Of a stretch of DNA of 62,345 bases, positions 16,696 through 60,683 are shown piece by piece. The notes beneath the pieces were generated by a model. That model had not been told where the DNA came from and did no database searches. It worked only from the letters and a program-made list of their open reading frames with translations. Source of the DNA: Candidatus Nomurabacteria bacterium (GTDB taxonomy: Bacteria; Patescibacteriota; Minisyncoccia; Phycocordibacterales; UBA2100); the NCBI GenBank assembly GCA_943359395.1, contig CALRHH010000005.1, positions 1-62,345 on the forward strand. The letters run 5' to 3'. Numbering within the stretch: the stretch's first letter is position 1; each line of letters starts with the position of its first letter. Made by a program: the position numbers and the translations under genes.

Positions 16696-16905
16696 TTAAA
16701 AGGTACCGCCGCAGCTTACGAAATATACTTTACCGTTCTGTGCTTGTGAGGTACATGCTGATGCAAGAGTGCCGGAAGCGGACTTGGTTGAGATGCTTTG
16801 AGGGTTGAGAAGCCTGACGACAAGAGAGGCCGCAATGGACGCGCATACGATGAATGCTGCTATTATTGAAGCAATTGCGGTGGGGGAAAGTCGGGAGCGT
16901 TCCAT
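16696..16905 (-). CDS. Small membrane-anchored peptide with C-terminal C-x13-C / FVSCGG motif (peptide 1)
   Basis: 69 aa: hydrophobic helix at ~10-31, ends ACTSQAQNGKVYFVSCGGTF. TATACT lies 7 nt upstream of the ATG. Confidence 0.85.
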   Translation of the reverse strand: MERSRLSPTAIASIIAAFIVCASIAASLVVRLLNPQSISTKSASGTLASACTSQAQNGKVYFVSCGGTF

Positions 16906-16912
16906 AGAGGTA

Positions 16913-16918
16913 AGTATA
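16913..16918 (-). promoter_or_regulatory. -10 box of the leaderless peptide 1 transcript
   Basis: Minus strand reads TATACT-TACCTCT-ATG. Confidence 0.55.
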
Positions 16919-16993
16919 TCGGCCGGTGTGAGGGTGTCAATATAGAGAGAGTGGGTATAATATCTTAAATTGGAAATATAAATATAGGTGCAT

Positions 16994-28872: not shown

Positions 28873-28927
28873 ACCCGAAAAGAAGGAAGAATAGTAAACT
28901 CCACTCCCTTGGTCTATAGTCTCTGGT

Positions 28928-46653: not shown

Positions 46654-46722
46654 GACTCTGTCGCCTAAGGTATCCCCAAAAGCGCCGTATACAGTTAAGG
46701 CTGAAAGGCGTATACTGCCCCG

Positions 46723-46914
46723 ATGGGTGACTTACGTTTTGATAGCGAGAGAGATGAGTTTAGTCGTCCCGAAAGTCCAAAGACCGATTTGACGGGTATG
46801 CTTATCACGTGGGGTCTCGTTTCGAACAGACAACAGGCCGAGTACGTAATGATAGGACTTGCAGTTGTTATTGCGTTGATAGCGTTCTTTGTGTACCGTA
46901 GTTCGACTGGTTGA
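46723..46914 (+). CDS. Small hypothetical membrane protein
   Basis: 63 aa with a C-terminal TM helix; TATACT lies 6 nt before the ATG. Confidence 0.6.
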   Translation: MGDLRFDSERDEFSRPESPKTDLTGMLITWGLVSNRQQAEYVMIGLAVVIALIAFFVYRSSTG

Positions 46915-47461: not shown

Positions 47462-47495
47462 AAAACCCCGCAATCGACGGGGGATTTTGTTTTTT
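47462..47495 (+). terminator. Rho-independent terminator after the pilin gene
   Basis: AAAACCCCG-CAATCGA-CGGGGGATTTT followed by GTTTTTT. Confidence 0.6.
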
Positions 47496-47507
47496 GCCGG
47501 TGGTACA

Positions 47508-47566
47508 CCCCGTGAGATAGAGAATTCGAGCCCTCTGCAATACGTGAATGTAATTATCTCACGGGG
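47508..47566. mobile_element. MITE-like inverted-repeat element, copy 1
   Basis: CCCCGTGAGATA...TATCTCACGGGG, 59 bp, flanked by TACA/TATA. The right flank is TATACT, 6 nt before the rpe ATG. Confidence 0.65.
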
Positions 47567-47578
47567 TATACTGTCCGC

Positions 47579-48268
47579 ATGATTGAGATAATACCCACGT
47601 GTGTTCCACGCGATGCCAGTGACCTTGCCGCTGGGGTAGAAGCCGCAAGTTCTTTTGCAACAGCCATACACATTGATATTGATGACGGTATTTTTGCTCC
47701 AATTACGACATGGCCATATATCAAACAGGGTGAGTTTGCGTCTTTCGACCTTTCGCCGGCGGAAGGGATTTTTTCCGAATTACATCTTATGGTTGAGGAG
47801 CCCAAAGAGATTGGCAATGCATTTGCACGGGCAGGCGCACGACGTATTGTCGGACACGTTGAAGGTTTTGCAGACGGGAATGAAGTGCGGGACGCCCTGA
47901 GCGCCTGGAGAAGAGCGGGGGCTTCCGAGGTGGGACTCGGTCTTCTTTTGCGGACGCCGTTTGAGGTAATCGCCCCGCATGTTTCTGAGTGCGATGTGGT
48001 GCACCTTATGTCCATTGCAACAATCGGGACGCAGGGAATCCCGTATGAGTCAAGTGCGCCCGCACGCATTGCGGAATTTCACCGACTGTTTCCCGGCGTC
48101 ATGATATCCGTTGACGGAGGTGTATCGGAAAATAATATTGCGGACTTGGTACGTGCGGGAGCGAGGCGCTTTGGAGTCGGTGCGGCAATTTCAAAAGCAC
48201 CAAATCCGAAAACAGCATACGAACATTTAAAATCTACGGCAGAAAATGCGCTAGACCCCGTGAGATAG
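47579..48268 (+). CDS. rpe: Ribulose-phosphate 3-epimerase
   Basis: IHIDIDDGIF, ELHLMV, LMSI..IG.QG, SVDGGV, GVGAAI. Confidence 0.88.
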   Translation: MIEIIPTCVPRDASDLAAGVEAASSFATAIHIDIDDGIFAPITTWPYIKQGEFASFDLSPAEGIFSELHLMVEEPKEIGNAFARAGARRIVGHVEGFADGNEVRDALSAWRRAGASEVGLGLLLRTPFEVIAPHVSECDVVHLMSIATIGTQGIPYESSAPARIAEFHRLFPGVMISVDGGVSENNIADLVRAGARRFGVGAAISKAPNPKTAYEHLKSTAENALDPVR

Positions 48269-48314
48269 TTACTTTCACGCAATACAACAGAATCGAACTT
48301 GTTATCTCATGGGG
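48256..48314. mobile_element. MITE-like inverted-repeat element, copy 2
   Basis: CCCCGTGAGATA...TATCTCATGGGG, 59 bp, flanked by a TAGA/TAGA direct repeat. Supplies the rpe stop. The right flank is TAGAAT, 6 nt before the transketolase ATG. Confidence 0.7.
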
Positions 48315-48326
48315 TAGAATAGGACA

Positions 48327-49190
48327 ATGGAACTACTGACTGACGAAGAGATACGCGAGCTGAGGTGTCATGCGCGTGATATCCGCACGACTATCGTTGA
48401 AATGCTCGCCGAGGCGAAGTCGGGACACACGTCGGGGCCTCTCGGTATGGCTGATATTTTCGCGGCACTCTATTTTCGCGTGCTGCATCATGACCCGAAG
48501 AATCCCGACTTACCGGAACGAGACCGGCTCATACTTTCCAACGGCCACATCGTCCCCGTGCGGTATGCGGCGATGGCGCACGCGGGTTACTTTCCGGTAG
48601 AAGAATGTCTCACGTTGCGCAAATTCGGAAGTCGTCTGCAGGGACATCCGGAGCGCGACATGCTCCCCGGGATGGAGACGACGTCGGGGCCGCTGGGCTC
48701 TGGGTTATCGCAATCTTGTGGCTATGCGTACGCTGCGCGCATGGATGGGAAGACCTTCCGCATTTTCTGCGCGATGTCTGATGGAGAACAAGAAGAGGGA
48801 AATACGTGGGAAGCGGTCATGTTTGCAGGTAAGTATCGCCTGAACAATCTGACCGCAATCATGGACCGCAACAACATACAGATAGACGGCAACACCGAAG
48901 ATATCATGCCGCTTGAGCCGATACGGGATAAATACGAGGCGTTTAATTGGCATGTTATTGAAGTGGACGGACACAACATTCCGCAATTCATCGCTGCATG
49001 CGACGAAGCAAAGGCTGTCCGCGAAAAACCGACGCTCATTCTTGCGCACACTATCCCAGGCAAGGGAATCCCTACGATTGAAAATGATTACCGCTGGCAC
49101 GGCAATCCCCCAGGAAAAGGTCCGGTTGATAAAATTCCCGCCGATAAACAGAAGCAGGTTTTTTTGGATGAAATCAAGGCCTCACAGTAG
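48327..49190 (+). CDS. Transketolase, N-terminal (TPP-binding) subunit
   Basis: SGHTSG, DRLILSNGH, SRLQGHP, GPLGSG, SDGEQEEGNTWEA, HTIPGKG. Confidence 0.93.
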   Translation: MELLTDEEIRELRCHARDIRTTIVEMLAEAKSGHTSGPLGMADIFAALYFRVLHHDPKNPDLPERDRLILSNGHIVPVRYAAMAHAGYFPVEECLTLRKFGSRLQGHPERDMLPGMETTSGPLGSGLSQSCGYAYAARMDGKTFRIFCAMSDGEQEEGNTWEAVMFAGKYRLNNLTAIMDRNNIQIDGNTEDIMPLEPIRDKYEAFNWHVIEVDGHNIPQFIAACDEAKAVREKPTLILAHTIPGKGIPTIENDYRWHGNPPGKGPVDKIPADKQKQVFLDEIKASQ

Positions 49191-49191
49191 T

Positions 49192-49617
49192 ATGCAATCA
49201 CGCGACGTAGGCGCAAGTTTTTTCATCAAGCTCGAGCGCGGGGAGGAGGTCATCGCGACGCTGACGGATTTTTGCACGCGCCGCGGCATGCGGGCCGGAG
49301 TATTTCAGGGAATCGGTGCAGTGGAGCGGATACAAATTGGGTACTATGACCTAGGCAAAAGAGAGTACTTCTTCCGCAGAGAGGAGGGTGTATTTGAAGT
49401 GGCAAGTATGCAGGGTAATGTGGCGCTCGTGGAAGAAAAGCCGTTTATCCACGCGCATGCGGTACTTTCGCGCTGCGATGAATCCCTTGAATGCATCGGT
49501 GCGCACATCAAGGAAGCTTACGTTGCTGTTACCTTGGAGATTCACATGACGCCGCTCGAAGCATCGCTTTCTCGTAAGCTGGACGACTCTATTGGACTTA
49601 AATTGCTCAACATATGA
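49192..49617 (+). CDS. DUF296 / PPC-domain protein
   Basis: IKLERGEEVI, GIGA, EVASMQGN, FIHAHAVL, GAH, T.EI. Confidence 0.85.
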   Translation: MQSRDVGASFFIKLERGEEVIATLTDFCTRRGMRAGVFQGIGAVERIQIGYYDLGKREYFFRREEGVFEVASMQGNVALVEEKPFIHAHAVLSRCDESLECIGAHIKEAYVAVTLEIHMTPLEASLSRKLDDSIGLKLLNI

Positions 49618-50615
49618 TTAATCCTGAAGCAAAATTGGCCGGAAATATCTTCGATAAACCCGCAATGGCGAGCACGCGCGAGGGTTTCGGCAAGGGTGTG
49701 GTCGAGGCGGGGCAGACCGACGAACGCGTCGTCGTCCTCACCGCCGACCTCGCGGAATCTACGCAGGCGCATCACTTTCAGAAAGCTTTTCCTGAGCGTT
49801 TTATCCAGTGTGGCGTCGCAGAGCAAAACATGGCGACGGTTGCGGCAGGCATGGCTCTGTACGGGAAGATTCCCTTCTTCACTTCTTATGCCGCATTCAG
49901 TCCCGGGAGAAATTGGGAGCAGATACGCACCACTATTGGTATCAACAACGTTCCCGCCGTTGTTTGCGGAATGCATGCGGGCGTTTCGGTGGGGCCCGAT
50001 GGAGCCACGCACCAAGCGCTTGAAGACATCGCGCTCATGCGCTCCATCCCACATTTTACGGTCATTTCCGCATGCGATTCAGAAGAAGGTCGAAAGGCTA
50101 CTATCGCTGCGGCAAAATTGGGAAGTCCCGTGTATCTGCGGTGGGGCCGTGACAAATCACCCGTAATGACGACGTCTGATACGCCGTTCGAGATAGGGAA
50201 GGCAAACGTTGTCTGGCAAGCACGGCAAGGCGAGGCCTTGCCGTGTGTGGCGATTTTTGCCACAGGCCACCTTCTTTATCAGGCGCTCGTCGCGGCGCGG
50301 CAGCTCGAAGGGGAAGGCGTAGCCGTCACGGTCACCAATGTGCACACAATTAAACCCCTCGACAAAGAGACCATACTCCGCGAGGCTCGTGCCGCAGGAG
50401 CTGTCGTCACTGTAGAAGAGCACCAGATCGCAGGAGGGTTCGGCGGAGCAATAGCAGAACTTCTTGCGCAAGAATGCCCGCTTCCGATTGAATTTATTGG
50501 CGTGCACGACAAATTCGGTCAGTCAGGCGAGCCAAAGGAACTCATCGAGCACTACGGCATGGGTGCCTCGCACATCGTGGCGGCGGTAGAGAAGGTCGCA
50601 GCACGAAAAAAATAG
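49614..50615 (+). CDS. Transketolase, C-terminal subunit
   Basis: GVAEQNM, GPDGATHQALED, VTVEEHQ..GG.G, DKFGQSG. Confidence 0.93.
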   Translation: MINPEAKLAGNIFDKPAMASTREGFGKGVVEAGQTDERVVVLTADLAESTQAHHFQKAFPERFIQCGVAEQNMATVAAGMALYGKIPFFTSYAAFSPGRNWEQIRTTIGINNVPAVVCGMHAGVSVGPDGATHQALEDIALMRSIPHFTVISACDSEEGRKATIAAAKLGSPVYLRWGRDKSPVMTTSDTPFEIGKANVVWQARQGEALPCVAIFATGHLLYQALVAARQLEGEGVAVTVTNVHTIKPLDKETILREARAAGAVVTVEEHQIAGGFGGAIAELLAQECPLPIEFIGVHDKFGQSGEPKELIEHYGMGASHIVAAVEKVAARKK

Positions 50616-50632
50616 TCGCGAGGAGTTTAGTT

Positions 50633-51616
50633 CTAGAGTTGCGTCGTTTGAAAGTCAGCGGGGCGTTTCGCGTACCACTCCTCTATCTCCGCACGCGTGA
50701 GAAGTTTGGTTTGAGCGCCGACGCCTTGTACGACAGATGCTGCGTTGATAACGCCGCGCAAGAGTGCTTCGCCCGCGGGCATTCCCGAGTGAATGAAAGC
50801 GACCGTAGTCGAGGCGGTAGCATCGCCCGCTCCTGTGCGTGAGACTGGAGGTGCGGGGTCTGGATACATTGGCACATGCCAGGCTCCTTTTTCATCGAGA
50901 ATGTTCGAACCGTTTGGACCGTCGGTGACGACCACGGTCTTTGGTCCAAGTATTCGCAGCCCCTCCATAAGTTTTTTAATATCATTCTCCTGTGTTTTCA
51001 GTATTGTTTGTGCCTCTTCTTTGTTGCAGAAGAATATTTCAGTGACAGCGTAGACGTCTTTGAGTGCCTCTGCACCGAGTTTTATCTGGAATGTTCCGGG
51101 CTGGAAGGCGAGTTTAGTCTCGGGATGCTCGGCACAATATGTCGCAACCTCATGATGGAATTCTTTCGCACTTTCGCCAAGAGAAGTGAGGTAGATGTAC
51201 CGGGGAGGCTCTGAGAATTTTGGAAGGGCGTACTTAAACGGTACCTGCTTTACTAGAATCGTGCGTTCCGCACCGTACATTAGGACGTAATGATAGTTGG
51301 TCGGGAGTCCTTTTTGTGTCTCAACGTATTCATCCGATACGCCATTACTTTTAAGGGTTTCGCGGCAGTGTACGCCATTCTCGTCGTCACCAACTCGCGC
51401 AATGAGTGCCGACGAGAGTCCGATGCGGTGGGCGGAAACGGCAGCATTGGCAGCATTGCCCACCGCGCGCACCTCCGTCATTTCTTCGAAGGGGACCTTG
51501 TCTGCGAAGCGTACGCACAGCTCGCGCGTACCGTGATTCATGTGTTCTTCTGCATCTTTCAATCTGATAAAAGCGTCGGTAGTAATGTCGCCAATGGCAA
51601 CGAAGTCATATTTCAT
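50633..51616 (-). CDS. PfkB-family carbohydrate kinase
   Basis: GNAANAAV, RVGDDENG, N.EEA, VTDGPNG, RTGAGDA. Confidence 0.9.
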   Translation of the reverse strand: MKYDFVAIGDITTDAFIRLKDAEEHMNHGTRELCVRFADKVPFEEMTEVRAVGNAANAAVSAHRIGLSSALIARVGDDENGVHCRETLKSNGVSDEYVETQKGLPTNYHYVLMYGAERTILVKQVPFKYALPKFSEPPRYIYLTSLGESAKEFHHEVATYCAEHPETKLAFQPGTFQIKLGAEALKDVYAVTEIFFCNKEEAQTILKTQENDIKKLMEGLRILGPKTVVVTDGPNGSNILDEKGAWHVPMYPDPAPPVSRTGAGDATASTTVAFIHSGMPAGEALLRGVINAASVVQGVGAQTKLLTRAEIEEWYAKRPADFQTTQL

Positions 51617-51727
51617 GTGATTTTGCGAAATCATGCCGCGTCACGTCTTTTGAAACGCGGACATTCGTCACTCATTGTAGCACGACATCGAGTTGCGCTA
51701 TGGGGAAAAATCCGTATACTGCTGCCC

Positions 51728-52387
51728 ATGTTAGCGCTTGATGTCAAAGCCCGCGTTGAAAACGAATCAGCAGATACGCTCCGCAAAAATGGCGCGGTGC
51801 CGGCTGTTTTTTACGGTCCCAAGGAGGAGACGACGGCGATTTCAGTTGATGCGCGTAAGCTCGCTTCCGTATGGCGCGAGGCGGGGGAGACGACCATCGT
51901 CACCTTGAAAGGCCTCGGCGAGGACAAGGATACACTCATTCATGACGCGCAATTTCACCCCGTAAATGGCCAGCTTTTGCACGCGGACTTCTACGTGCTT
52001 GAGAAGGGCAAGAAAATCAAGATAAGTGTGCCGCTTGAATTTGCGGGAGTCGCCCCAGCCGAAAAGTCTGGGCATATCATCGTCAAGGCGCTTCATGAGG
52101 TAGAGATTGAAGTTGCTGCTGCGGAGCTTCCTCACCACCTCGTTGTCGACCTTACGACGCTCATTGCTGTCGGTGACCACATTACTGCTGCACAAATAAA
52201 ACTCCCGCCGAGCGCAACGCTCGTCACACACGCCGAGGAAATCGTCGCGTCCGTCACGGAATTCAAGGAAGAGGTTGTGGAGGTTACACCGGCACCTGAG
52301 ACCATCATAACGACCGAAAAAGTGGCGGAAGCTGGGGAGAGCGAAGGTGAAGCCGCACCCACAAAAGGGGAAAAGTCCGAGAAGTAA
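51728..52387 (+). CDS. rplY: 50S ribosomal protein L25 / general stress protein Ctc
   Basis: VPAVFYG, Q.HPV....HADFY, VPLEF.G, LP..L.VD; TATACT lies 7 nt before the ATG. Confidence 0.93.
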   Translation: MLALDVKARVENESADTLRKNGAVPAVFYGPKEETTAISVDARKLASVWREAGETTIVTLKGLGEDKDTLIHDAQFHPVNGQLLHADFYVLEKGKKIKISVPLEFAGVAPAEKSGHIIVKALHEVEIEVAAAELPHHLVVDLTTLIAVGDHITAAQIKLPPSATLVTHAEEIVASVTEFKEEVVEVTPAPETIITTEKVAEAGESEGEAAPTKGEKSEK

Positions 52388-52413
52388 ATTTGGTATACTC
52401 TGTGTATACGTGT

Positions 52414-53772
52414 ATGCGCTCTCATAGAGCAGTTTTTTTTGTCGCGATTCTCTTGACCTCAGGAGGTTTTTTAGTACCTCAACACGCGTACACTCAAACG
52501 AGTCAAGTAACGAATCAGGAGGAGCGAACCGCTCTTCAAGCGCAGCTCGATCAAATAGAAAAAGACATTGCAAACAATCAGGGGACACTTGGCACTCTGC
52601 AGCAGCAGCGCACCACGCTCGAGCGTGATATCGCGATTCTTGATAATAAGATACGGACCGCTCAACTTAACATCAAACAGAGCGACCTTACCCTTTCTCA
52701 ACTCAAGGGAAATATCACGGAAAAGCAGAAGTCAATCGCGCAGGTAGATGCAAAAGTTTCTCGAAGCGAGGAGTCTCTAGCCCAGCTGTTACGTCGCACA
52801 CGTGAAATCGATGATGTTTCCCTTACGCAGCTTGCTCTGGGTGAGAGCCTCGAGGACTTTTTTCAGGATGTAGATGATTTTCAGTCGATACAGAAGGCTC
52901 TCGGGGAATCGTTTGTCGAGATGGCTGCTCTGCGGGAAGACCTCGCGGGCCACAAGGCGGCGCTCGAGGACAAGGAGGACCAGGCGAAGAAGGTGCGGCA
53001 AGTACAGGTACTCGCGAAGCAAGCGGTTCTTGAGGACGAGAAGAAAAAACAATCAATACTCTCCGCTACCAAAGGACAAGAGAAGACCTACCAGCAGTTG
53101 ATTGCGGAGAAAAAGCTGAAGGCGAGTGCCATTCGCGCAGCACTGTTCGGCTTGCGTGACTCAGGCGCAATTCCTTTCGGGACGGCATACCAGTACGCAA
53201 AGGAAGCCTCGGAGCAGACGGGAGTTCGTCCTGCTGTTATACTCGGAGTTCTTAGACAGGAGACGAACCTGGGAGAGAATGTGGGATTGTGCCTGCTCAC
53301 CAATTCTCCCGATAAAGGTGATGGAAAAGGAAAAAACACAGGTCGGGCATTTAATCAGGTTATGAAGGGTTCTCGCGACGTTGACCCATTTATGCAAATT
53401 ACGAGTGAGCTCGGGCTCGACCCGTTTGCGCAGGTCGTTTCGTGTCCACAGTCGAGTGGCTACGGAGGTGCAATGGGACCTGCGCAATTCATTCCTTCCA
53501 CATGGATGCTCTACCAGGACAGACTTGCGAAAATGACCGGACAGAATCCTCCCGACCCGTGGAGCGCGCGTACCGCTATATTTGCGACCGCGCTCCTTAT
53601 GGCCGACAACGGCGCGGACAATGGCACGCGCGCATCGGAGCGTCTAGCCGCCCTCCGCTACTTTGCCGGTTGGGCTTATGCCACCAAACCTGCCTATGCT
53701 TTCTACGGGAGCGGCGTTATGGGGTACGCGGACCAGTATCAGGCCGACATCGATATTCTTGAGGGGAAATAA
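52414..53772 (+). CDS. Coiled-coil + lytic murein transglycosylase (SLT-like) protein
   Basis: Signal/TM segment, long coiled coil, GVLRQET..G, GAMGPAQFIPSTW, AALRYFAG. Confidence 0.8.
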   Translation: MRSHRAVFFVAILLTSGGFLVPQHAYTQTSQVTNQEERTALQAQLDQIEKDIANNQGTLGTLQQQRTTLERDIAILDNKIRTAQLNIKQSDLTLSQLKGNITEKQKSIAQVDAKVSRSEESLAQLLRRTREIDDVSLTQLALGESLEDFFQDVDDFQSIQKALGESFVEMAALREDLAGHKAALEDKEDQAKKVRQVQVLAKQAVLEDEKKKQSILSATKGQEKTYQQLIAEKKLKASAIRAALFGLRDSGAIPFGTAYQYAKEASEQTGVRPAVILGVLRQETNLGENVGLCLLTNSPDKGDGKGKNTGRAFNQVMKGSRDVDPFMQITSELGLDPFAQVVSCPQSSGYGGAMGPAQFIPSTWMLYQDRLAKMTGQNPPDPWSARTAIFATALLMADNGADNGTRASERLAALRYFAGWAYATKPAYAFYGSGVMGYADQYQADIDILEGK

Positions 53773-53922
53773 AAAGCATATGAGTGTCGCAAACCGAAAG
53801 GCCGCTACTGCGGCACTGCTGTTTGTAGCCAATCGCTTCGCTCTTGATTGAGCACAATCACCTACCGGGTGGACAAACAGGGAGCTTGTTAATTTGGCTC
53901 GAATTCTGTATAGTGTGCCGAC

Positions 53923-54192
53923 ATGAAAAAAAACCTTCATCCAGATTCATACCGACAGGTTATCTTCGAGGATTCCACCTCGGGGAAGCGTTTTTTGATT
54001 GGCTCTACCATAGATACGCAAAAGACCGACAAGTGGGATGATGGCAAAGAATATCCTGTCTTTCAGGTTGAAATATCAAGCGCATCACACCCTTTTTACA
54101 CAGGCACGGCCAAGACTATCGACACTGCAGGACGCGTAGATAAGTTCAAGAAGCGTGCGGCATCTACGAAGGTGAAGAGAACAAAGAAATAA
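53923..54192 (+). CDS. rpmE: 50S ribosomal protein L31 (type B, Zn-free)
   Basis: [31 protein letters not shown]; no Cys. Confidence 0.95.
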
Positions 54193-54198
54193 CGGCAC

Positions 54199-54238
54199 AT
54201 AACGCCGAAGCCCCGCGCATGCGGGGCTTCGGCGTTAT
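54199..54238. repeat. Perfect 18-bp palindromic hairpin between rpmE and prfA
   Basis: ATAACGCCGAAGCCCCGC-GCAT-GCGGGGCTTCGGCGTTAT. Confidence 0.9.
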
Positions 54239-54248
54239 ACTTATAACT

Positions 54249-55235
54249 ATGGCAGACAAAAAGGAAATAAACCTCGAGGAATACGCGAATGACCATCGTG
54301 TCTCTTATCTTATTGCCGAATGGAATCGCCTCTCGCAAGGAGAAAAGGATGCGGAAGAATTGATGGAAGTTGACCCCGCCATGAAAGAACTAGCGGAGAA
54401 AGAGCTCAACGAGATTGAAAGTCAGAAGAACGTGCTTATGAAGCAAATAGAGGCAATTGTGGGCGGCGACAACGAACGCGAATGGCCGAATGAAGTCGTT
54501 GTCGAGGTGCGTGCCGGCGTCGGGGGCGATGAAGCCGCGCTTTTCGCGGAAGAACTTGCGGCTATGTATGTGAAGTATGCTGAGATAAAGGGATGGAGTT
54601 CGAAGGCTCTCGACGAATCGCGTAATTCACTGGGGGGGTACAAGGAAGCGCAATTTGAAATAAAGGGGGCGAACGTATATCGCAAGTTACAATATGAAAC
54701 GGGGGTGCATCGCGTGCAGCGTGTCCCTGCCACAGAGAAAGCGGGACGCATCCATACCTCAACGGCTTCGGTCGCTATCCTTCCTATATACAAACGGACC
54801 AAGATAGAGATAAATCCTTCAGACCTTGAAATAGAGACATCGCGCTCAGGCGGCGCAGGGGGGCAGAACGTAAATAAGGTGGAGACGGCCGTGCGCATCG
54901 TCCACATACCGACGGGCATCGACGTGAAATGCACGTCCGAGCGCTCTCAAGCGCAGAATAAGGAAAAAGCCATGACGTTGCTTATAAGCCGTATCCAACA
55001 ACAGCAGGATGAGCGTGAGGCGCGTGAGCGGGCGGCGGACCGCAAAGCGCAGGTGGGGACGGGAGACCGGTCGGAGAAAATACGCACTTACAATTTTCCC
55101 CAGGACCGCGTAACCGACCACCGCATCAAAGAATCATGGTCAAACGTACCGAAGATTATGGCAGGGGGTATCGAGCCAATCCTCGAAGCGCTCGCGAAGG
55201 TCGAGGAGGGCAGCGAGGTTGCGACCAGCGCGTGA
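54249..55235 (+). CDS. prfA: Peptide chain release factor 1
   Basis: [24 protein letters not shown] (PxT), [25 protein letters not shown]. Confidence 0.96.
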
Positions 55236-55256
55236 ATTTGCTAGTATCTCCCGCAC

Positions 55257-55994
55257 ATGACAACCGCAGACATCAAGACGCTTTTTGAGGCAGGTGCGCA
55301 TTTCGGCTATCTCCGAGCGCGCCGCCATCCCACGGCTTCCCCCTATCTATTTGGCACAAAAGACCGAACCGATATTTTCGACCTCGAAGAGACGACCAAG
55401 CGCCTCGATGCGGCCTGTGCGTTCATTACGTCAGTCGTAGCGGCTGGCAAACAAGTCGTTTTCATCGGAGGTAAGCACGAGGCTATGGGCGTTGTGAAAG
55501 ACGTCGCAGAACGCGTTGGCGCACCGTACGTCGCGGGCCGGTGGATTGGAGGCACACTCACAAATTTCAAGAATATCCGGAAGCGCATTGACCGTCTCGA
55601 GCAACTCATGAGCGAGCGTGCGAGCGGTGCCTTGGAGAAATACACGAAGCGCGAACGCCTCATGATTGACCGCGAGATTACAGAACTTCTCGGACGTTTT
55701 GGTGGTCTCGTGAAAATGACTGACCTTCCTGCGGCGCTTTTCATCGTCGACACGCGTCACGAAGACACAGCAGTGCAGGAGGCCAACCAACTTAAAATCC
55801 CCGTAGTCGGACTCTCGAGTTCTGACTGTGATTTCTCACTCACACAGTATCCAATTCCTGGAAACGACACGTCCATTCGTTCGATTGCTCTCGTCGCAAA
55901 TGCGATTGGAGAAGCTTACGCAGAGGGTAAATCTGCAGCCGCAGTCGCAAAAAGTGTTCCAACGAACGGAAAGACAACGACGGAAGGGAAGTAA
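55257..55994 (+). CDS. rpsB: 30S ribosomal protein S2
   Basis: LFEAGAHFG, RWIGGTLTN, PGND.SIRSI. Confidence 0.97.
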   Translation: MTTADIKTLFEAGAHFGYLRARRHPTASPYLFGTKDRTDIFDLEETTKRLDAACAFITSVVAAGKQVVFIGGKHEAMGVVKDVAERVGAPYVAGRWIGGTLTNFKNIRKRIDRLEQLMSERASGALEKYTKRERLMIDREITELLGRFGGLVKMTDLPAALFIVDTRHEDTAVQEANQLKIPVVGLSSSDCDFSLTQYPIPGNDTSIRSIALVANAIGEAYAEGKSAAAVAKSVPTNGKTTTEGK

Positions 55995-56021
55995 TCCCTT
56001 CGGCAGAATTTATACGGTATA

Positions 56022-56085
56022 CCCCGTTAGATAGTCATTTCCTTTTACATTACTCAGAACATTCGGATTTTATTATCTAACAGGG
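56022..56085. mobile_element. MITE-like inverted-repeat element, copy 3
   Basis: CCCCGTTAGATA...TATCTAACAGGG, 64 bp, flanked by TATA/TATA. The right flank is TATACT, upstream of tsf. Confidence 0.65.
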
Positions 56086-56108
56086 TATACTGAGAGAGAA
56101 TTTTTTGT

Positions 56109-56690
56109 ATGGCAACAACGGAAGAAATAAAAGAGCTTCGCGACCAGACGGGGGTCGCGATTATGCAATGCAAGAAGGCGCTTGAGGAAGCAGGCGGGGA
56201 TATTGAGAAGGCGAAAGTTATACTCCGCAAAATCAGCTCCGCCATCGCCGCAAAAAAATCAGAGCGTGCGCTCGGCGCAGGCATCGCTGCCGCGTATACT
56301 CACGCGGGGGGTGCGGTCGTGGCGGCAGTCGTGCTCGGCTGTGAGACGGACTTCGTCTCTAAAAACGAGGAGTTTTCGAAACTTGCCTACGATATCGCGA
56401 TGCATATTGCCGCGATGGGTCCACAATTTACGTCGAGAGACGATATCAAAGAGAGCGATTTAAAGGCCGCACGGGAGGTTTTTGCTGAAGAAGCCGCCAA
56501 AGTTCCCGAAGCAGCGCGTGCGAAAGCAATTGAGGGGAAAGTAGACAGTTATCTGCGCGAACGCGTTCTCCTCGAGCAACCGTATGTAAAAGATTCCAGC
56601 GTCACTATCGGTCAGCTTATCGACTCTGCAATGCAAAAGTTCGGCGAGAAGATAGTAGTCGTGCGTTTCGAGCGGCTCTCCGTCAAATAG
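56109..56690 (+). CDS. tsf: Elongation factor Ts (short form)
   Basis: IKELRDQTG...CKKALEEAGGD, CETDFV, LLEQP.VKD, GEKIVVVRF. Confidence 0.95.
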   Translation: MATTEEIKELRDQTGVAIMQCKKALEEAGGDIEKAKVILRKISSAIAAKKSERALGAGIAAAYTHAGGAVVAAVVLGCETDFVSKNEEFSKLAYDIAMHIAAMGPQFTSRDDIKESDLKAAREVFAEEAAKVPEAARAKAIEGKVDSYLRERVLLEQPYVKDSSVTIGQLIDSAMQKFGEKIVVVRFERLSVK

Positions 56691-56693
56691 TGT

Positions 56694-57101
56694 ATGACGT
56701 TTTCAATCGTCGTTTTTTCCGTTTCGCTTTTATCCATCGTCCTCTTGTTTTCTCTCAAGCATTTTGAAATACGACGTGAGCGTGTCTTTTTTGCTGAGTG
56801 GAGGCAGAAGGCAGACGTCCGTGCCCTCCAACTCAAGGAATTGCTCGATGCTGCGCGCTTAGATCTTTCCAAGATTCCTCCTGAAGCAGTGCGTTTGTCA
56901 CGCATCGGTATCCACCAGCTTGCTCTCGGGTTCGCTGCTTTTGCGCGCCGGACGGAGAGGTATGCGCACCAAGTAGCGGATCTTGTGTCCTACAAGCATC
57001 GTTTTGAGAAGCGGGATACGCGTTCGGAGTTCTTGAAGAAGGTAGCGGAGCACAAGAGTGGGGGCGCGGGCGGCTCCGGTGACTCCACCACGGAACTTTA
57101 G
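56694..57101 (+). CDS. Hypothetical membrane-anchored protein
   Basis: 135 aa with an N-terminal TM helix, directly after tsf. Confidence 0.6.
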   Translation: MTFSIVVFSVSLLSIVLLFSLKHFEIRRERVFFAEWRQKADVRALQLKELLDAARLDLSKIPPEAVRLSRIGIHQLALGFAAFARRTERYAHQVADLVSYKHRFEKRDTRSEFLKKVAEHKSGGAGGSGDSTTEL

Positions 57102-57195
57102 GTTTGTATCTTGGTAAACGCGTATCACCACTGCTGTATGTAGTGTCGATGCGTACGTTTGCTGCGCGAGGTTCCGGGTGGAGTCACCGGAGCCG
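57071..57195. ncRNA. Candidate structured RNA (6S-like architecture)
   Basis: A 25-bp closing stem (CGGCTCCGGTGACTCCACC-a-CGGAAC / GTTCCG-GGTGGAGTCACCGGAGCCG) encloses a bubble and an apical stem-loop. Confidence 0.4.
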
Positions 57196-57201
57196 TCTCG
57201 C

Positions 57202-57230
57202 TTGAAGAAAAGGCTTAAAAAAGGCACAAT
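57202..57230 (+). promoter_or_regulatory. sigma70-type promoter of tRNA-Thr
   Basis: TTGAAG-N17-CACAAT, 11 nt before the tRNA. Confidence 0.45.
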
Positions 57231-57241
57231 GCCTGTGTCCC

Positions 57242-57314
57242 GCCGCCTTAGCTCAGTTGGTAGAGCAACACTTTTGTAAAGTGAAGGTCCCCAGTTCGAA
57301 TCTGGGAGGCGGCT
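57242..57314 (+). tRNA. tRNA-Thr (TGT)
   Basis: Acceptor stem GCCGCCT/AGGCGGC, D arm GCTCAGTTGGTAGAGC, anticodon loop TT-TGT-AA, T arm CCCAG-TTCGAAT-CTGGG. CCA is not encoded. Confidence 0.95.
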
Positions 57315-57351
57315 CAAGTTTCCATATTTCCAATACGTCCACTTCGTCCCT

Positions 57352-58908
57352 ATGAACACAAAAGACACATATTGGTATTTGCACATCGGCCGTGCGAGCG
57401 ACCTTACCGGGCGTGACCGTATCACATACAGGCTCTTTGAAATGCTGCCTGGAATTCTTTCGCTCGCCACGCTTCTTTTGTTTGTCGCGCTCTCTTTCAA
57501 GCGTCCCGTGTGGGCAGCGTACCTCACCATCATCTTCTCTATCTACTGGCTCCTGAAGACCATCTACCTGTCGGCGCATTTGAGGCATAACTTTAAGCGC
57601 GTGCGACATAATTTGAGCATCGATTGGAACGAACGTCTCAAGAATCTATCACATCAAGACATCACCCATCTCGTCATCTTTCCTTTTTACACGGAAGGAT
57701 ATGAGGTCGTCGCCGAGAGCGTGCGCGGTCTCCTAGGTTCAAAGTATGACCACAAGCGCATCGCAGTCGTTATAGCTGCGGAGGAGCGGGCTGGTAAGGA
57801 ACAACGTACTGTCGCCGACCGCATCGCGGCGGATTTCTCGAGTCACTTCGGAGCTCTTATAGTGACCGAACACCCAGCGGACCTCGCGGGAGAGTTGCCA
57901 GGGAAAGGCTCAAATATCTCATATGCCGCAGAAGAGGCCCGCGTTCGAATCTTGGATTCGCAGAATATCCCTTACGAGAAAACTATCGTTTCGGCATTCG
58001 ATATCGATACGGTCGTCTACCCGCACTATTTTAGCTGTCTTACGTGGCATTTTTTGACGTCGGAGAGGCCTGAGCGCACCTCGTTCCAGCCCATCCCACT
58101 TTACAACAACAACATCTGGGATGCTCCGATGCTCTCTCGTGTCATTGCGTATTCGAGCTCGTTTTGGCAAATGATTCAGCAGGAGCGACCTGAACGTCTT
58201 GCAACTTTTTCTTCCCATGCGATTCCTTTCAAGCCGTTGCGAGAGGTGGGATACTGGCAAAAAAATGTCGTCTCTGAAGACTCTCGCATTTTTTGGAATC
58301 TCTTTGTGCGATACGACGGCGATTACGACGTCATCCCAATGGCGTATCCAGTTTCAATGGACGCGAATGTCGCATCGAATTTTTGGGGTACAGCCAAGAA
58401 TATTTACCTCCAACACCGTCGGTGGACCTACGGAGCAGAAAATATTCCCTACATCCTCTTTGCTTTCATGAAAAATCCCCGAATGCCCTTCGGAAAAAAG
58501 GTACGCGCGGCGTCCGTACAAATTGAAGGTTTCTGGTCGCTTACGACGAACCCACTTGTTCTCTTTGCCGTAGGGTGGCTGCCGCTCATTGTCGGCGGGC
58601 GTGCATTCAATGCCACCGTTCTCTCGTACAATCTGCCGCTCGTCGCAAAAGGATTCCTCACCGCGTCGCTTTTTGGGCTCCTTGTGTCTGCGGCGATAGC
58701 TATGCAATTGGTTCCTGAGCGGCCCCGCGAAAAGACTCGTTTCCACAGTGCCATGCATTTTCTCCAGTGGATACTGGTTCCCATGACCATGGTTGTGTTC
58801 AGTGCCATACCGGGACTCGATGCGCAAATGCGCCTCATGTTTGGGCGCTACTTGGGTTTCTGGGTGACGCCGAAGTCGAGAAAAATAGGGGCCCCGGATT
58901 CTTTGTGA
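57352..58908 (+). CDS. Glycosyltransferase family 2 (membrane-bound)
   Basis: PGKGSN, SAFDID, SEDSRIF, QHRRW, flanking TM helices. Confidence 0.85.
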   Translation: MNTKDTYWYLHIGRASDLTGRDRITYRLFEMLPGILSLATLLLFVALSFKRPVWAAYLTIIFSIYWLLKTIYLSAHLRHNFKRVRHNLSIDWNERLKNLSHQDITHLVIFPFYTEGYEVVAESVRGLLGSKYDHKRIAVVIAAEERAGKEQRTVADRIAADFSSHFGALIVTEHPADLAGELPGKGSNISYAAEEARVRILDSQNIPYEKTIVSAFDIDTVVYPHYFSCLTWHFLTSERPERTSFQPIPLYNNNIWDAPMLSRVIAYSSSFWQMIQQERPERLATFSSHAIPFKPLREVGYWQKNVVSEDSRIFWNLFVRYDGDYDVIPMAYPVSMDANVASNFWGTAKNIYLQHRRWTYGAENIPYILFAFMKNPRMPFGKKVRAASVQIEGFWSLTTNPLVLFAVGWLPLIVGGRAFNATVLSYNLPLVAKGFLTASLFGLLVSAAIAMQLVPERPREKTRFHSAMHFLQWILVPMTMVVFSAIPGLDAQMRLMFGRYLGFWVTPKSRKIGAPDSL

Positions 58909-58918
58909 TGGGAGTATA

Positions 58919-58979
58919 CCCCATGAGATAGTGAATTTTAGAAATTGTACTGTGATTGGGGGTGAGGTATCTCACGGGG
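58919..58979. mobile_element. MITE-like inverted-repeat element, copy 4
   Basis: CCCCATGAGATA...TATCTCACGGGG, 61 bp, flanked by TATA/TATA. TATACT lies 7 nt before ATG 58993. Confidence 0.7.
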
Positions 58980-58992
58980 TATACTTGTCCGC

Positions 58993-59844
58993 ATGCAACC
59001 GATGACCAAACGCCGTCGCCGCCTTTACCTCTACGGACTCGTTGCCGTTTTTGTTCTCTGTCTCCCGATTGTGATGTCGTATGCCAACGGGTATCGATTC
59101 AAGAACGGGGTTGGGTTCGTGCGCACGGGGAGTGTCATTATTTCTGTTTCGAAAAGTGATGCGTTACTTTCTCTCAGTGGAGTAGAAGTAGGCGCGTCAG
59201 GTTTTCTTCGTCATAATTTTTATATAGATAACCTTGCGCCCGGCGCGTATCAGGTATCGGTAACGCGCGAGGGGGATCATCCGTGGCACCGCACACTTAT
59301 TGTAGAAGAGGAGCTCGTGACAGACGCTCAGGCATTTCTTGTGCCCATCGCGATTACATCAGTGAAACTAGTTGACGCCTCAAAGGTGGCGTCTTCGACT
59401 ATAGCCACATCGTCAGAAGCTACCCCTCGCATCACGTACGAAGCGTATCAAAAGGCGTTTCTTCCCACGAGCGCAACTTCAACGCTCCCCAGCGCGTCCC
59501 ATAAGCCGGCCAGTGAGATCGTCGTGTTGAGAAACGGAGATGTTTTAGTGCAATGGACAGACGCGGGTGTTCTCCCACCGAGTCGGTTTTGTCGCGGACC
59601 GTCTCTCTGTGGAGTTGAGATTCCCATTGAGGTTGGTAAGCAAAACTCAATAAACGCTGAGTTCTTCGGCGGAGGCATCGTATACACGACGAAAGAAGGC
59701 GGGATTTTTCTCGGCGAGATAGACGTGAGGCCCGAGCCCGTGTCTGTCCAGCTGTACCCTGTGCGCGGGGCGGACTTCCGAATCATTGATGGACACCTCA
59801 TCGTAAAGGACGGAAATACTCTCTACGAGATAACGGAGCTCTAG
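58993..59844 (+). CDS. PEGA-domain protein
   Basis: TM helix; YANGYRF...TGSVII...NLAPGAYQVSVTREG..PW. Confidence 0.7.
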   Translation: MQPMTKRRRRLYLYGLVAVFVLCLPIVMSYANGYRFKNGVGFVRTGSVIISVSKSDALLSLSGVEVGASGFLRHNFYIDNLAPGAYQVSVTREGDHPWHRTLIVEEELVTDAQAFLVPIAITSVKLVDASKVASSTIATSSEATPRITYEAYQKAFLPTSATSTLPSASHKPASEIVVLRNGDVLVQWTDAGVLPPSRFCRGPSLCGVEIPIEVGKQNSINAEFFGGGIVYTTKEGGIFLGEIDVRPEPVSVQLYPVRGADFRIIDGHLIVKDGNTLYEITEL

Positions 59845-59853
59845 TGCGATATA

Positions 59854-59914
59854 CCCCGTGAGATAAGGACTTTCACCTATGAAACTAAAGTCCTGACTTT
59901 TCTATCTCACGGGG
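59854..59914. mobile_element. MITE-like inverted-repeat element, copy 5
   Basis: CCCCGTGAGATA...TATCTCACGGGG, 61 bp, flanked by TATA/TATA. TATACT lies 7 nt before the pheS ATG. Confidence 0.7.
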
Positions 59915-59927
59915 TATACTAGCCGCT

Positions 59928-60683
59928 ATGAAGCCCGGTTTACCCAGAGCAGAGTCGAGAGGCAGCATTCATCCCATATCGTCCCTCATCCGCGAGGCCA
60001 ACCGCATCTTTTTTGACATGGGGTTTACGTTCGCCGAAGGACCCCTGCTCGAGGACGAATGGCACAACTTCGACGCACTCAATGTGCCCAAAGACCACCC
60101 CGCGCGTGACATGCAGGATACGTTTTTTATTAAGGATGAGCCTGGTTATGTACTGCGTACGCACACTTCTCCCGTACAGGTGCGATACATGGAAGAGCAG
60201 GTAAAAAGGGGTATTCAGCCACCTTACCGTGTCATAGTGCCAGGCAAAGTGTTTCGCAATGAAGCCACCGACATAACACATGAAGCAGAATTTTTCCAAA
60301 TAGAAGGATTGGCGGTGGGTGAGGATATATCACTCGCGAATCTCAAAGGCACACTAGAGAGATTTTTTAGAGAATTATTCAAGGGTGTTTCCGTCGAAAT
60401 CCGTTTTCGTCCGAGCTTCTTTCCTTTTACCGAGCCATCGGTTGAAGTCGACATGCGTCTCGTGGGCGAGAGCGCTCCGCCAAAATTGCGCGATAAATGG
60501 ATAGAGATGATGGGTGCAGGCATGGTGCATCCGAGCGTTCTGAAGAATGCCGGAATAGATAGCGAGAAATACCGTGGATTCGCATTTGGCATGGGGCTCG
60601 ACCGCTTGGCGATTATTCGTTGGGGCATAGATGATATCCGTCTCATGCACTCCGCCGATTTGCGATTCATAAACCAATTCTAA
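59928..60683 (+). CDS. pheS: Phenylalanine-tRNA ligase alpha subunit (lacks the N-terminal coiled coil)
   Basis: GSIHP, NFDALN.PKDHPARDMQDTF, LRTHTS, PGKVFR, FPFTEPS, GFAFGMGLDR. Confidence 0.95.
   Translation: MKPGLPRAESRGSIHPISSLIREANRIFFDMGFTFAEGPLLEDEWHNFDALNVPKDHPARDMQDTFFIKDEPGYVLRTHTSPVQVRYMEEQVKRGIQPPYRVIVPGKVFRNEATDITHEAEFFQIEGLAVGEDISLANLKGTLERFFRELFKGVSVEIRFRPSFFPFTEPSVEVDMRLVGESAPPKLRDKWIEMMGAGMVHPSVLKNAGIDSEKYRGFAFGMGLDRLAIIRWGIDDIRLMHSADLRFINQF

Follow-up and report, generated by a model that had tools for sequence, protein, structure and literature searches.

The Correia elements of Neisseria (CREE or NEMIS) are MITEs (miniature transposable elements with inverted repeats) that insert at TA-rich targets. 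Their termini and the target duplication make or restore -10-like boxes, and they form hairpins in transcripts. They are 100-155 bp long, with conserved interiors, and are found in one genus; no cognate enzyme is known. In another group of small repeats, the REPINs (paired repetitive extragenic palindromes, or REPs), conserved inverted arms surround a variable spacer, and many dispersed non-coding copies accompany a presumed mobilizing gene, the REP-associated tyrosine transposase (RAYT), which is itself flanked by the repeats. Here, we describe five inverted-repeat elements of about 60 bp in a 62,345-nt stretch of DNA from a Candidatus Nomurabacteria bacterium (contig CALRHH010000005.1, positions 1 to 62,345; hereafter, the window). 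As with the Correia elements, they have inverted-repeat ends, TA-rich targets, and hairpins, and they affect the -10 box beside genes. We think it likely that they are non-autonomous, MITE-like copies of a family that is bounded by terminal inverted repeats (TIRs) and whose full-length form, of 266-294 bp, encodes a GIY-YIG nuclease.

The five elements were first noticed in a sequence-only reading of the window, and a scan of the entire 62 kb (51% G+C), which derives from lake-water metagenomes, located all of them at the same coordinates, with the same arms and flanks. The left arm is CCCC(G/A)T(G/T)AGATA and the right arm is its reverse complement; there are five such pairs of 12-nt arms (CCCCRTKAGATA / TATCTMAYRGGG). 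The gaps between the arms are 35, 35, 40, 37, and 37 nt in copies 1-5, and the whole elements are 59-64 bp. Nine of the ten arms match the consensus perfectly. At 0-1 mismatch, the 12-mer matches nowhere in the window other than at these ten arms, and chance would yield about 0.03 exact matches to a 12-mer of fourfold degeneracy. With up to two mismatches, we found 24 arm matches versus 11.1 expected, and none of 100 shuffles reached 24. Three of the five pairs were among the top-ranked hits of an inverted-repeat finder, and single-strand folding predicts strong hairpins for all five elements (z = -3.2 to -9.6). In an Rfam scan of the whole window at the gathering threshold, none of the elements matched a family; the sole match was a tRNA-Thr.

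We compared the window to two sets of relatives. Locus L040, from a scan of one genome per species, is ~70% identical to the window over 48.8-57.3 kb. Four 20-kb syntenic loci from Kaiserbacteria (L130-L133) were reached via homologs (77%, 66%, and 63% amino acid identity) of the hypothetical protein that is encoded downstream of copy 4. These four loci contain no arms at one mismatch or fewer. The orthologous comparison covers the sites of copies 3, 4, and 5 and the promoter of ribosomal protein L25; the syntenic loci end ~200 bp before copies 1 and 2.

At the site of copy 5, the window has ctctagtgcgaTATA, the element, and then TATACTagccgctATG, while L132 has the empty allele ctctagtgcgaTATACTgccgctATG and L130 has the empty allele ctctagTATACTgagcggctATG. 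At the site of copy 4, the window has gggAGTATA, the element, and then TATACTtgtccgcATG, while L130 is empty (gggAGTATACTgttccgcATG, also written cttgggAGTATACTgttccgcATGcaacc). At the site of copy 3, the window has tttatacggTATA, the element, and then TATACTgagagag, while L130 continues directly through tttatacgtTATACTgagagag; the empty alleles of this site are tttatacgtTATACTgagagagaaatttttcatATG in L130, cggTATAATcacgaag (followed by the ATG) in L132, and aaggTACACTtttactgtATG in L040. The L25 promoter is a reciprocal case: it is empty in the window (aaatccgTATACTgctgcccATG) and filled in L040, which has ggaatccgTATA, an element (CCCCGTGAGATA, 39 nt, and TATCTCACGGGG), and then TATACTctcgcgcATG. 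Every compared insertion consists of the element plus exactly 4 bases. Thus, copies 3, 4, and 5 are insertions relative to the sister genomes. Since several successive outgroups are empty, the parsimonious explanation is that the copies were gained in the lineage of the window. These exact empty alleles for three of the five copies, along with the reciprocal case, support the initial proposal that a non-autonomous element inserts at TAnA within -10 boxes.

As TATA equals its reverse complement, a duplicated TATA looks the same as an extended inverted repeat when just the window is considered. We consider the 4-bp duplication to be real because of the empty sites in relatives and because of identical flank pairs that are not palindromic. 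These include TAGA/TAGA around copy 2 and, among the matches listed from other genomes, TACA (twice), CTGG, CAAG, CTTG, and TCAA, as well as a TGAA/TGAA pair at a site within a YhcG gene. The 4-bp pattern holds across these further copies, so the flanks do look like target-site duplications, as originally suggested. Judged by these alignments, the elements duplicate their target at T-A-N-A and prefer (AG)TATA(CT). In this lineage, the duplicated bases are the first four of an existing -10 hexamer; the hexamer is rebuilt downstream of the element, and its distance to the ATG is unchanged. The AG just upstream of copy 4 is host sequence, since the target there was the palindrome AGTATACT.

We rejected two other accounts of the flanks. 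An 8-bp palindromic target (TTYA/TRAA) without duplication is ruled out by elements within genes, where the element and 4 nt must be removed to restore the host's reading frame (L129, L025, L155, L225). Insertion into the loops of pre-existing hairpins was suggested by flanks like gcccaaTTCA..TGAAttgggc, and we rejected it as well: the repeat extends beyond the 4-mer in just 8 of 130 copies, which belong to one subfamily.

In all five copies, the right arm is directly followed by a -10 hexamer, which is TATACT in four copies and TAGAAT in copy 2. An ATG follows 6, 6, 17, 7, and 7 nt later. This is as the sequence-only reading had it, with 6-7 nt in four cases; the exception is copy 3. Copy 1 (arms at 47508-47519 and 47555-47566, CCCCGTGAGATA / TATCTCACGGGG, 35-nt core) lies between a terminator-like hairpin (47466-47482) and rpe. 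Its flanks do not match (TACA at 47504-47507 and TATA at 47567-47570), and its promoter (47567-47581, + strand) has TATACT at 47567-47572 and, after 6 nt, the ATG of rpe (PF00834) at 47579, which is a leaderless type of geometry. Copy 2 (arms at 48256-48267 and 48303-48314, CCCCGTGAGATA / TATCTCATGGGG, 35-nt core) is flanked by the direct duplication TAGA at 48252-48255 and 48315-48318. Its promoter (48315-48329, +) has TAGAAT at 48315-48320 and, after 6 nt, the ATG (48327) of the N-terminal half of a split transketolase (PF00456). Copy 3 (arms at 56022-56033 and 56074-56085, 40-nt core) has T-type arms with one mismatch between them (CCCCGTTAGATA / TATCTAACAGGG) and is flanked by TATA at 56018-56021 and 56086-56089. 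Its promoter (56086-56111, +) has TATACT at 56086-56091 and, after 17 nt, the ATG of EF-Ts (PF00889) at 56109. Copy 4 (arms at 58919-58930 and 58968-58979, CCCCATGAGATA / TATCTCACGGGG, 37-nt core) is flanked by TATA at 58915-58918 and 58980-58983. In its promoter (58980-58995, +), TATACT at 58980-58985 is followed after 7 nt by the ATG (58993) of a 283-amino-acid hypothetical protein; some homologs of this protein have a PEGA domain, and its closest named homologs are from Candidatus Kaiserbacteria. Copy 5 (arms at 59854-59865 and 59903-59914, a perfect CCCCGTGAGATA / TATCTCACGGGG pair, 37-nt core) is flanked by TATA at 59850-59853 and 59915-59918, and its core includes its own 8-bp hairpin. 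Its promoter (59915-59930, +) has TATACT at 59915-59920 and, after 7 nt, the ATG of pheS (PF01409) at 59928.

All five copies lie within 12.4 kb (47508-59914), and each is upstream of a gene on the + strand (P ~ 0.007 under uniform placement). Local hopping may account for the clustering, or good targets may be dense in this region. Copy 2 also touches a coding region: the stop codon of rpe (TAG at 48266-48268) overlaps the last two bases of its left arm, at the inner end, so that the last four predicted residues of Rpe (DPVR) are encoded by the element. By our reconstruction, Rpe from an empty copy 2 site (gcgcTAGAAT) would end in ..ALE*, while the filled version ends in ..ALDPVR*.

Many other genes in the window have a hexamer similar to TATACT, TAGAAT, or TATAGT at 6-9 nt before the ATG, with no inverted repeat. 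Examples are at 16905-16930 (- strand), 28910-28930, 46705-46725, 51715-51730, and 53905-53925, and these lack a Shine-Dalgarno sequence or a -35 box. The example at 51715-51730 (+) is the unoccupied target mentioned above: TATACT at 51715-51720, then 7 nt, and then the ATG of ribosomal protein L25. The window shows no enrichment of canonical -35/-10 promoters (7 found versus 9.7 expected). This pattern suggests that the genome, as a rule, uses -10-only promoters and leaderless mRNAs. Given the lack of enrichment of -35/-10 promoters and the frequent hexamer-ATG arrangement, a -10 box at a leaderless start is the normal style of promoter here, and the elements are an addition to it. The sequence-only reading had the element replacing the -35 region. 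The upstream DNA is indeed displaced, by about 65 bp, but there is no -35 box in either the empty or the filled versions of the promoters that we compared, so there was probably no -35 box to replace.

The cores had been described as sharing no visible similarity, and this is largely so: in a global alignment, the similarity of the five cores to each other and to all other cores is within the null range. However, copies 1, 2, and 5 share a block of about 10 nt next to one arm, GTGAA(A/T)GT(A/C)(A/C)n. It lies at 47545-47554 in copy 1 (where it is flipped and beside the right arm, as GTGAATGTAAt), at 48268-48280 in copy 2, and at 59866-59878 in copy 5. The block is also found in one further copy from the same lake, and overall it was present at 6 of 250 element ends, versus 1.0 expected. 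In copies 1 and 2, the block includes a TAA that is one base from the arm, which is the position of the stop codon in full-length elements of the CPR type (see below). The shared block is a hint that these copies descend from a common ancestor and that the remainder of their cores has since turned over.

We scanned genomes for a degenerate arm pair with a gap of 25-55 nt and found the short form at 118 or more genome loci from about 15 phyla. (The counts in this paragraph and the next are among the matches listed.) Hosts from the candidate phyla radiation (CPR) and beyond include Kaiserbacteria, Paceibacterota, Saccharibacteria, Moranbacteria, Doudnabacteria, Cloacimonadota, Bacteroidota, Ignavibacteriales, Calditrichia, KSB1, Stahlbacteria, Planctomycetota, Verrucomicrobiota, Nitrospinota, Gemmatimonadota, and Acidobacteriota. 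Most of the cores are 34-42 nt. Among 128 cores, 90 are singletons, and the remaining 38 form 16 related groups (orthologs, or paralogs such as L013/L062). The two arms co-vary: at position 7, 56 pairs are T/T, 63 are G/G, and 6 are mixed (p = 8e-28). About 85% of copies have T-N-N-A as both flanks; the flanks are TATA/TATA in CPR and mostly TTYA (left) and TRAA (right) in other phyla.

The association with -10 boxes extends to other CPR genomes and is specific to the CPR type. In CPR, 22 of 29 copies have the start of an open reading frame (ORF) within 30 nt of an arm, versus 20 of 76 copies in other phyla. Near these starts, the CPR copies mostly have the hexamer followed by 6-8 nt, on whichever side bears TATACT. 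L002 and L094 have leaderless genes on both sides of the element, as expected if AGTATACT served two divergent promoters.

The spacing of the arms can be very different. We also saw arms separated by 2, 5-8, 26, 70, 92-96, or 261 nt, and by about 250-290 nt if there is an ORF between them. Near-palindromic forms, with arms 2-8 nt apart, are found in L004 (6912-6940), L026 (4791-4820), L086 (1412-1442), and L103 (7543-7574). On a contig from the source lake, a near-palindromic form is followed by TATAAT, 7 nt, and an ATG. In sequencing runs from this lake, the cores of further short copies are 2, 32, about 34, and 70 nt long. In some loci, a right arm is followed after 4-5 nt by a left arm, but most copies are solitary, so we ruled out that these are arrays of palindromic repeats.

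The sequence-only reading had raised the possibility of an autonomous element with the same termini, and a gene-carrying form does exist. In locus L025, the same arms surround 274 nt that encode an 84-amino-acid GIY-YIG protein, which has 475 homologs at E <= 1e-10; these are 70-86% identical across phyla. More generally, the full-length element, present at more than 200 loci, is 266-294 bp, with the same 12-nt arms, and its sole ORF encodes a GIY-YIG nuclease of 80-90 amino acids. All GIY-YIG loci of the family that we examined have the arms exactly around the gene: L025, L119-L129, L254-L264 (from CPR), and the metagenome elements. One lineage (L121-L126) has a compensated variant of the arms, GCCC...GGGC. 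Scanning metagenomes for G-type arms around a conserved TGGGG yielded at least 120 loci, about 100 of which have an intact ORF of 80-90 amino acids in an element of 266-294 bp.

The right arm of the major subtype doubles as coding sequence for the conserved C-terminus of the protein (TAT CTC ACG GGG, or YLTG), and the flank supplies the stop codon, TAA or TGA. This explains the TRAA right flank, and it implies a long co-evolution of the protein and the terminus. In the CPR subtype, the flanks are TATA and TATACT, and an 80-amino-acid protein stops just before the right arm. This protein has 1,498 homologs at E <= 1e-12, and wherever the sources name a host, it is CPR (Lloydbacteria, Zambryskibacteria, Parcubacteria, or Minisyncoccia). 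The layout of the full-length CPR element is aactcTATA, the arm CCCCGTGAGATA, 10 nt, the ORF from ATG to TAA, a single a, the arm TATCTCATGGGG, and TATACT. One metagenome-assembled genome of Parcubacteria (L057; P0213) contains both a full-length copy and a 59-bp copy. Overall, the protein subtype, the arm type, and the flank type co-vary, with 80 amino acids and TATA in CPR and with 85-90 amino acids and TTYA/TRAA in others.

The encoded protein is a bona fide GIY-YIG domain, as judged from its sequence and a structural model. It matches PF01541 (E = 1.2e-17, 64 bits versus a cut-off of 22.6). Residues Y5, Y14-x-G16, R24, H28, and E60 are invariant; by visual matching, we equate them with the positions of GIY, YIG, Arg, His, and Glu. 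In a profile search, we found 3,421 clusters (at 50% identity) with E <= 1e-10. The AlphaFold model (pLDDT of 92.9) is most similar in fold to the UPF0213 structure 1ZG2 and to Slx1 (7CQ2, 7CQ3, and 4XM5; TMq of 0.58-0.67), and then to I-TevI. The sequence profile also hits 1ZG2 (2.9e-9). The closest solved relatives are the uncharacterized UPF0213 proteins 1ZG2 and 1YWL, along with Slx1. The GIY-YIG superfamily has known representatives in homing endonucleases, UvrC, Slx1, and Penelope retroelements. To our knowledge, it had not been described as the gene of a TIR-bounded bacterial element, and we did not find a published description of these arms, or of a GIY-YIG element flanked by them, in the open-access literature.

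Many of the full-length copies are inside genes or beside them. Defense-type genes are often involved (L119-L129, L025); these encode RhuM, GmrSD, type I restriction subunits, YhcG, or AlbA_2/HATPase_c_4 proteins. The association may merely reflect tolerance of insertions in such genes. At 26 loci (L134, L143, L144, L149, L152, L173, L175, L178, and others), a tyrosine recombinase gene similar to integron integrases is interrupted at ..VQELLGHS|DVxTTMIYTHV.., and deleting the element with 4 or 5 nt restores ORFs of 340-366 amino acids. The flanks have many synonymous differences, which implies that the split integrase genes stay under selection or that the site was hit repeatedly. In YhcG (DUF1016, a PD-(D/E)XK protein), one codon position within G(K/Q)MN(F/L/M)YL was hit repeatedly. 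L129, L155, and L225 have the element at this same codon, the flanks of L215 and L233 group with those of L129 and L225, and L192 has a similar motif. The left 4-mer at this site is either the direct copy, TGAA, or the reverse complement, TTCA, so both TGAA/TGAA and TTCA/TGAA are found at the same codon.

An RNA gene is also a recurrent site. In several CPR genomes (L259-L264 at about 2479-2756, and L163, L211, L212, and L219), a full-length element is at the position of the P3 hairpin of RNase P RNA. The GGGG of the right arm continues into AGGAAAGTCCG, and RF00010 matches downstream of the element (53 bits, E = 3e-15, which is below the gathering score). The arms may serve as an extended P3 helix. 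Finally, in L025, a 56-bp element is at the same codon of two paralogous AlbA_2-type genes (674-729 and 5238-5293). The two elements have identical arms; their flanks and cores agree at about 75% of positions, and the reading frame stays open to either side. This suggests that the element predates the gene duplication and that the split gene is tolerated.

Given the association of the nuclease gene with the arms and their co-variation, the copies in the window were probably mobilized in trans by the candidate GIY-YIG nuclease. The nuclease would be provided by a full-length copy elsewhere in the genome or in the community. It would recognize both arms, possibly as a hairpin or cruciform, which would suit a structure-specific enzyme similar to Slx1, and it would cleave at the outer edges of the arms, with a 4-bp stagger in the target. 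If the arms are recognized as a hairpin or cruciform, then conservation would be required of the arms but not of the core; a 60-bp unit that is too short to bend as a duplex could have its ends meet; and the loop could be 2 nt or an entire gene. The cores would be free to drift or to be replaced. The sequence-only reading also proposed that the termini capture variable DNA, and they may do so. With no -35 element in these promoters, swapping the upstream DNA should be cheap and restoring the -10 box would make an insertion close to neutral, so copies in promoters would survive while copies in coding DNA would be lost. Such survivorship fits the excess of CPR copies near ORF starts.

A stronger version of this proposal is that the ~280-bp elements are autonomous DNA transposons whose sole protein is an 80-90-amino-acid GIY-YIG nuclease, which would be a new class of transposase chemistry. 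We are evenly divided about this. These transposons would use the hairpin or cruciform of their 12-16-nt ends, and they would have seeded ~60-bp derivatives across phyla that lodge in the -10 boxes of CPR.

Several observations weigh against mobilization by the GIY-YIG nuclease or against a simple form of it. We found no GIY-YIG gene in the window or in the syntenic loci. (The window also lacks a transposase, as originally reported.) Nor did we find a full-length element, at 80% identity or above, in contigs from three low-depth runs of the source metagenome. In the same three lake-water runs, we found no presence/absence polymorphism in the source population and no joints at the elements, on low-depth contigs only. 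An 80-amino-acid catalytic domain with no obvious DNA-binding domain seems an unusual candidate for a sequence-specific transposase. The cores are largely unrelated to each other and are unlike the interior of any full-length element, which is atypical for MITEs that arose by recent bursts or by internal deletion; we rejected the idea that the cores are remnants of internal deletions, as their similarity to full-length interiors is not above chance. Full-length copies often share one site in homologous genes (the integron-type integrases, YhcG, and the P3 helix of RNase P RNA), which resembles homing. This trait is seen even while short copies with duplications occupy many unrelated sites. Also, most 4-bp flanks outside of CPR are inverted copies (TTYA..TRAA, 46 cases among the matches listed) and not direct ones, which is not expected from a simple staggered-cut model. 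We speculate that inverted flanks arise when the two central mismatches in a T-N-N-A/T-N-N-A extension of the stem are corrected. Among the matches listed in L001-L118, there are also 11 TTYA/TTYA pairs (plus three TCAA/TCAA) and just 1 of the mirror pair TRAA/TRAA, a skew that the random orientation of contigs should not permit.

The homing-like pattern raises the question of whether the nuclease gene is a passenger. GIY-YIG genes are classic homing endonucleases, and a hairpin element that is moved by another enzyme, from the host or otherwise, might carry such an ORF in its loop. The very different sizes of the cores between the same arms, which imply that the loop can hold anything, fit this idea, as do the recurrence of full-length copies at identical sites of homologous genes and the absence of the GIY-YIG gene near the copies in the window. 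However, the arms never enclose any other ORF; the major subtype has its ORF fused to the element's end, implying that protein and terminus have long evolved together; and the subtypes of protein, arms, and flanks co-vary. We also noticed no recurrent transposase-like neighbor in the gene tables that we examined, although we did not test for this systematically. We consider a passenger to be unlikely, though deserving of serious thought. Alternatively, the elements might have transposed and now be kept for a host function, as promoter insulators, as upstream elements, or as RNA hairpins at operon junctions, where they would terminate or process transcripts that read through. This would add to mobilization by the nuclease without excluding it. 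Nine of the ten arms in the window are perfect while the cores have diverged, the paralogs in L025 keep identical arms, all five elements fold as strong hairpins, and four of the copies are at gene-gene junctions within a run of co-oriented genes. But the same genes are expressed in sister genomes without the elements, and arm conservation is subject to ascertainment bias, as the copies were found by searching for intact arms. Furthermore, the arm mismatch of copy 3 and the flank mismatch of copy 1 are what decay predicts. Retention for a host function thus seems rather improbable to us.

Two other proposals look far weaker. The sequence-only reading had suggested that the arms could be paired operators of a global regulator or a nucleoid-associated protein. 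In favor, the right arm abuts the -10 box in five of five cases, and the arms are strongly symmetric. Yet the promoters of the sister Kaiserbacteria (L130-L133) lack the sites and differ only by the exact insertion, and the set of occupied promoters differs between relatives. The arm spacing, from 2 to about 290 nt, is not fixed, and the arms are also found in coding regions, in an RNA gene, in unrelated phyla, and around the nuclease gene. We view operators as very improbable and have set this suggestion aside. The mostly unrelated cores of 35-40 nt also bring to mind CRISPR-like units or integron attC-like units, with conserved termini around acquired, spacer-sized DNA, and full-length copies are often inside integron-integrase-like genes. 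But the repeats are inverted instead of direct and do not form arrays; the arms lack the attC core sites (RYYYAAC / GTTRRRY); the length of the core is not fixed across the family; and the neighbors are housekeeping genes in conserved synteny, not cassettes. We give this hardly any credence.

The family can be placed among the known small elements. Like MITEs, the elements are short and non-coding, with TIRs, a 4-bp duplication of fixed length, empty sites, and a gene-carrying relative with the same termini. Common interiors are usual for MITEs, but are not strictly defining, and here we found just the ~10-nt block in three of the five copies. Unlike MITEs that derive from insertion sequences with DDE transposases, which are also small and non-coding with TIRs, fixed-length duplications, and longer gene-carrying relatives, our elements have a partner gene that encodes none of the DDE, HUH, serine, or tyrosine transposases, and their interiors are not recognizable deletion derivatives. 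Compared to the Correia elements, they are shorter (about 60 bp), have unrelated interiors, are found in many phyla, and have a candidate enzyme gene with the same ends.

REPINs with their RAYTs have the closest architecture. Shared features are the dispersed non-coding hairpins, the conservation of the arms only, and a presumed mobilizing gene between the repeats, as in a REPtron. But our elements do not belong to that system: RAYT (TnpA-REP) is an HUH/Y1 transposase while our candidate is a GIY-YIG nuclease; REP units are palindromic and have a GTAG/CGTC tag, while the 12-nt arm is not self-complementary and has no such tag; and RAYTs are single-copy and vertically inherited, while the gene unit described here is multicopy, at many loci and across phyla, with a clear 4-bp duplication. 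IS200/IS605 elements and their palindrome-associated derivatives (PATEs) also have hairpin-forming ends, sites that are defined by a tetranucleotide, and tiny non-autonomous derivatives. They differ in lacking TIRs and a duplication and in using a Y1 HUH enzyme, and no such gene is associated with our elements. The GIY-YIG homing endonucleases, such as I-TevI and Seg, share the catalytic domain, selfish behavior, and the use of one site in conserved genes. But they have long DNA-binding domains, no TIRs, and no miniature derivatives, and they spread only between homologous alleles, whereas the elements here are inserted at many non-homologous sites with a 4-bp duplication. Another lead is piggyBac, whose ends have a TTAA duplication and CCC...GGG termini. 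The likeness to those ends is superficial (a 4-bp T-N-N-A duplication, and termini that run from CCC to AGATA), and unlike piggyBac and IS1380, our family has no DDE or DDD transposase and its protein is unrelated.

The window also contains two inverted repeats of other kinds. A perfect 19-nt inverted repeat (CGGCTCCGGTGACTCCACC / GGTGGAGTCACCGGAGCCG) at 57071-57089 and 57177-57195, with its halves 87 nt apart, is unrelated to the arms; it spans the end of the ORF at 56694-57101 and is just upstream of the tRNA-Thr (57242-57315). A perfect 18-bp hairpin with a 4-nt loop (54199-54238) follows the L31 gene, and the ATG of a release factor (54219) is in its loop region.

In kind, the five elements are ordinary: they are small, non-autonomous mobile DNA. 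They are unusual in using the -10 box as their target, in their unrelated interiors, and in their likely partner, a 280-bp, one-gene GIY-YIG element that is found across phyla. They illustrate a simple route by which a mobile element can enter the core promoters of essential genes in a reduced genome while the host survives, since the duplication rebuilds the -10 box. They also disrupt metagenome assembly and give rise to gene ends that are spurious or altered, such as the C-terminus of Rpe, so awareness of them should improve the annotation of CPR and other uncultivated genomes. The family links very common but uncharacterized "GIY-YIG nuclease family proteins" of the UPF0213/COG2827 type, which are often mis-annotated as excinuclease ABC subunit C, to a selfish-element lifestyle, and this gives them a testable function. 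If the nuclease does mobilize the elements, then it would be a new class of transposase, alongside the DDE, HUH, serine, tyrosine, and Cas1 enzymes, with a minimal unit of 280 bp that would be easy to reconstitute. The smallest insertion sequences that we are aware of are about 600-700 bp, while the gene-carrying form here is about 280 bp; if it moves itself, it would be the smallest self-mobilizing element that we know of in cellular genomes.

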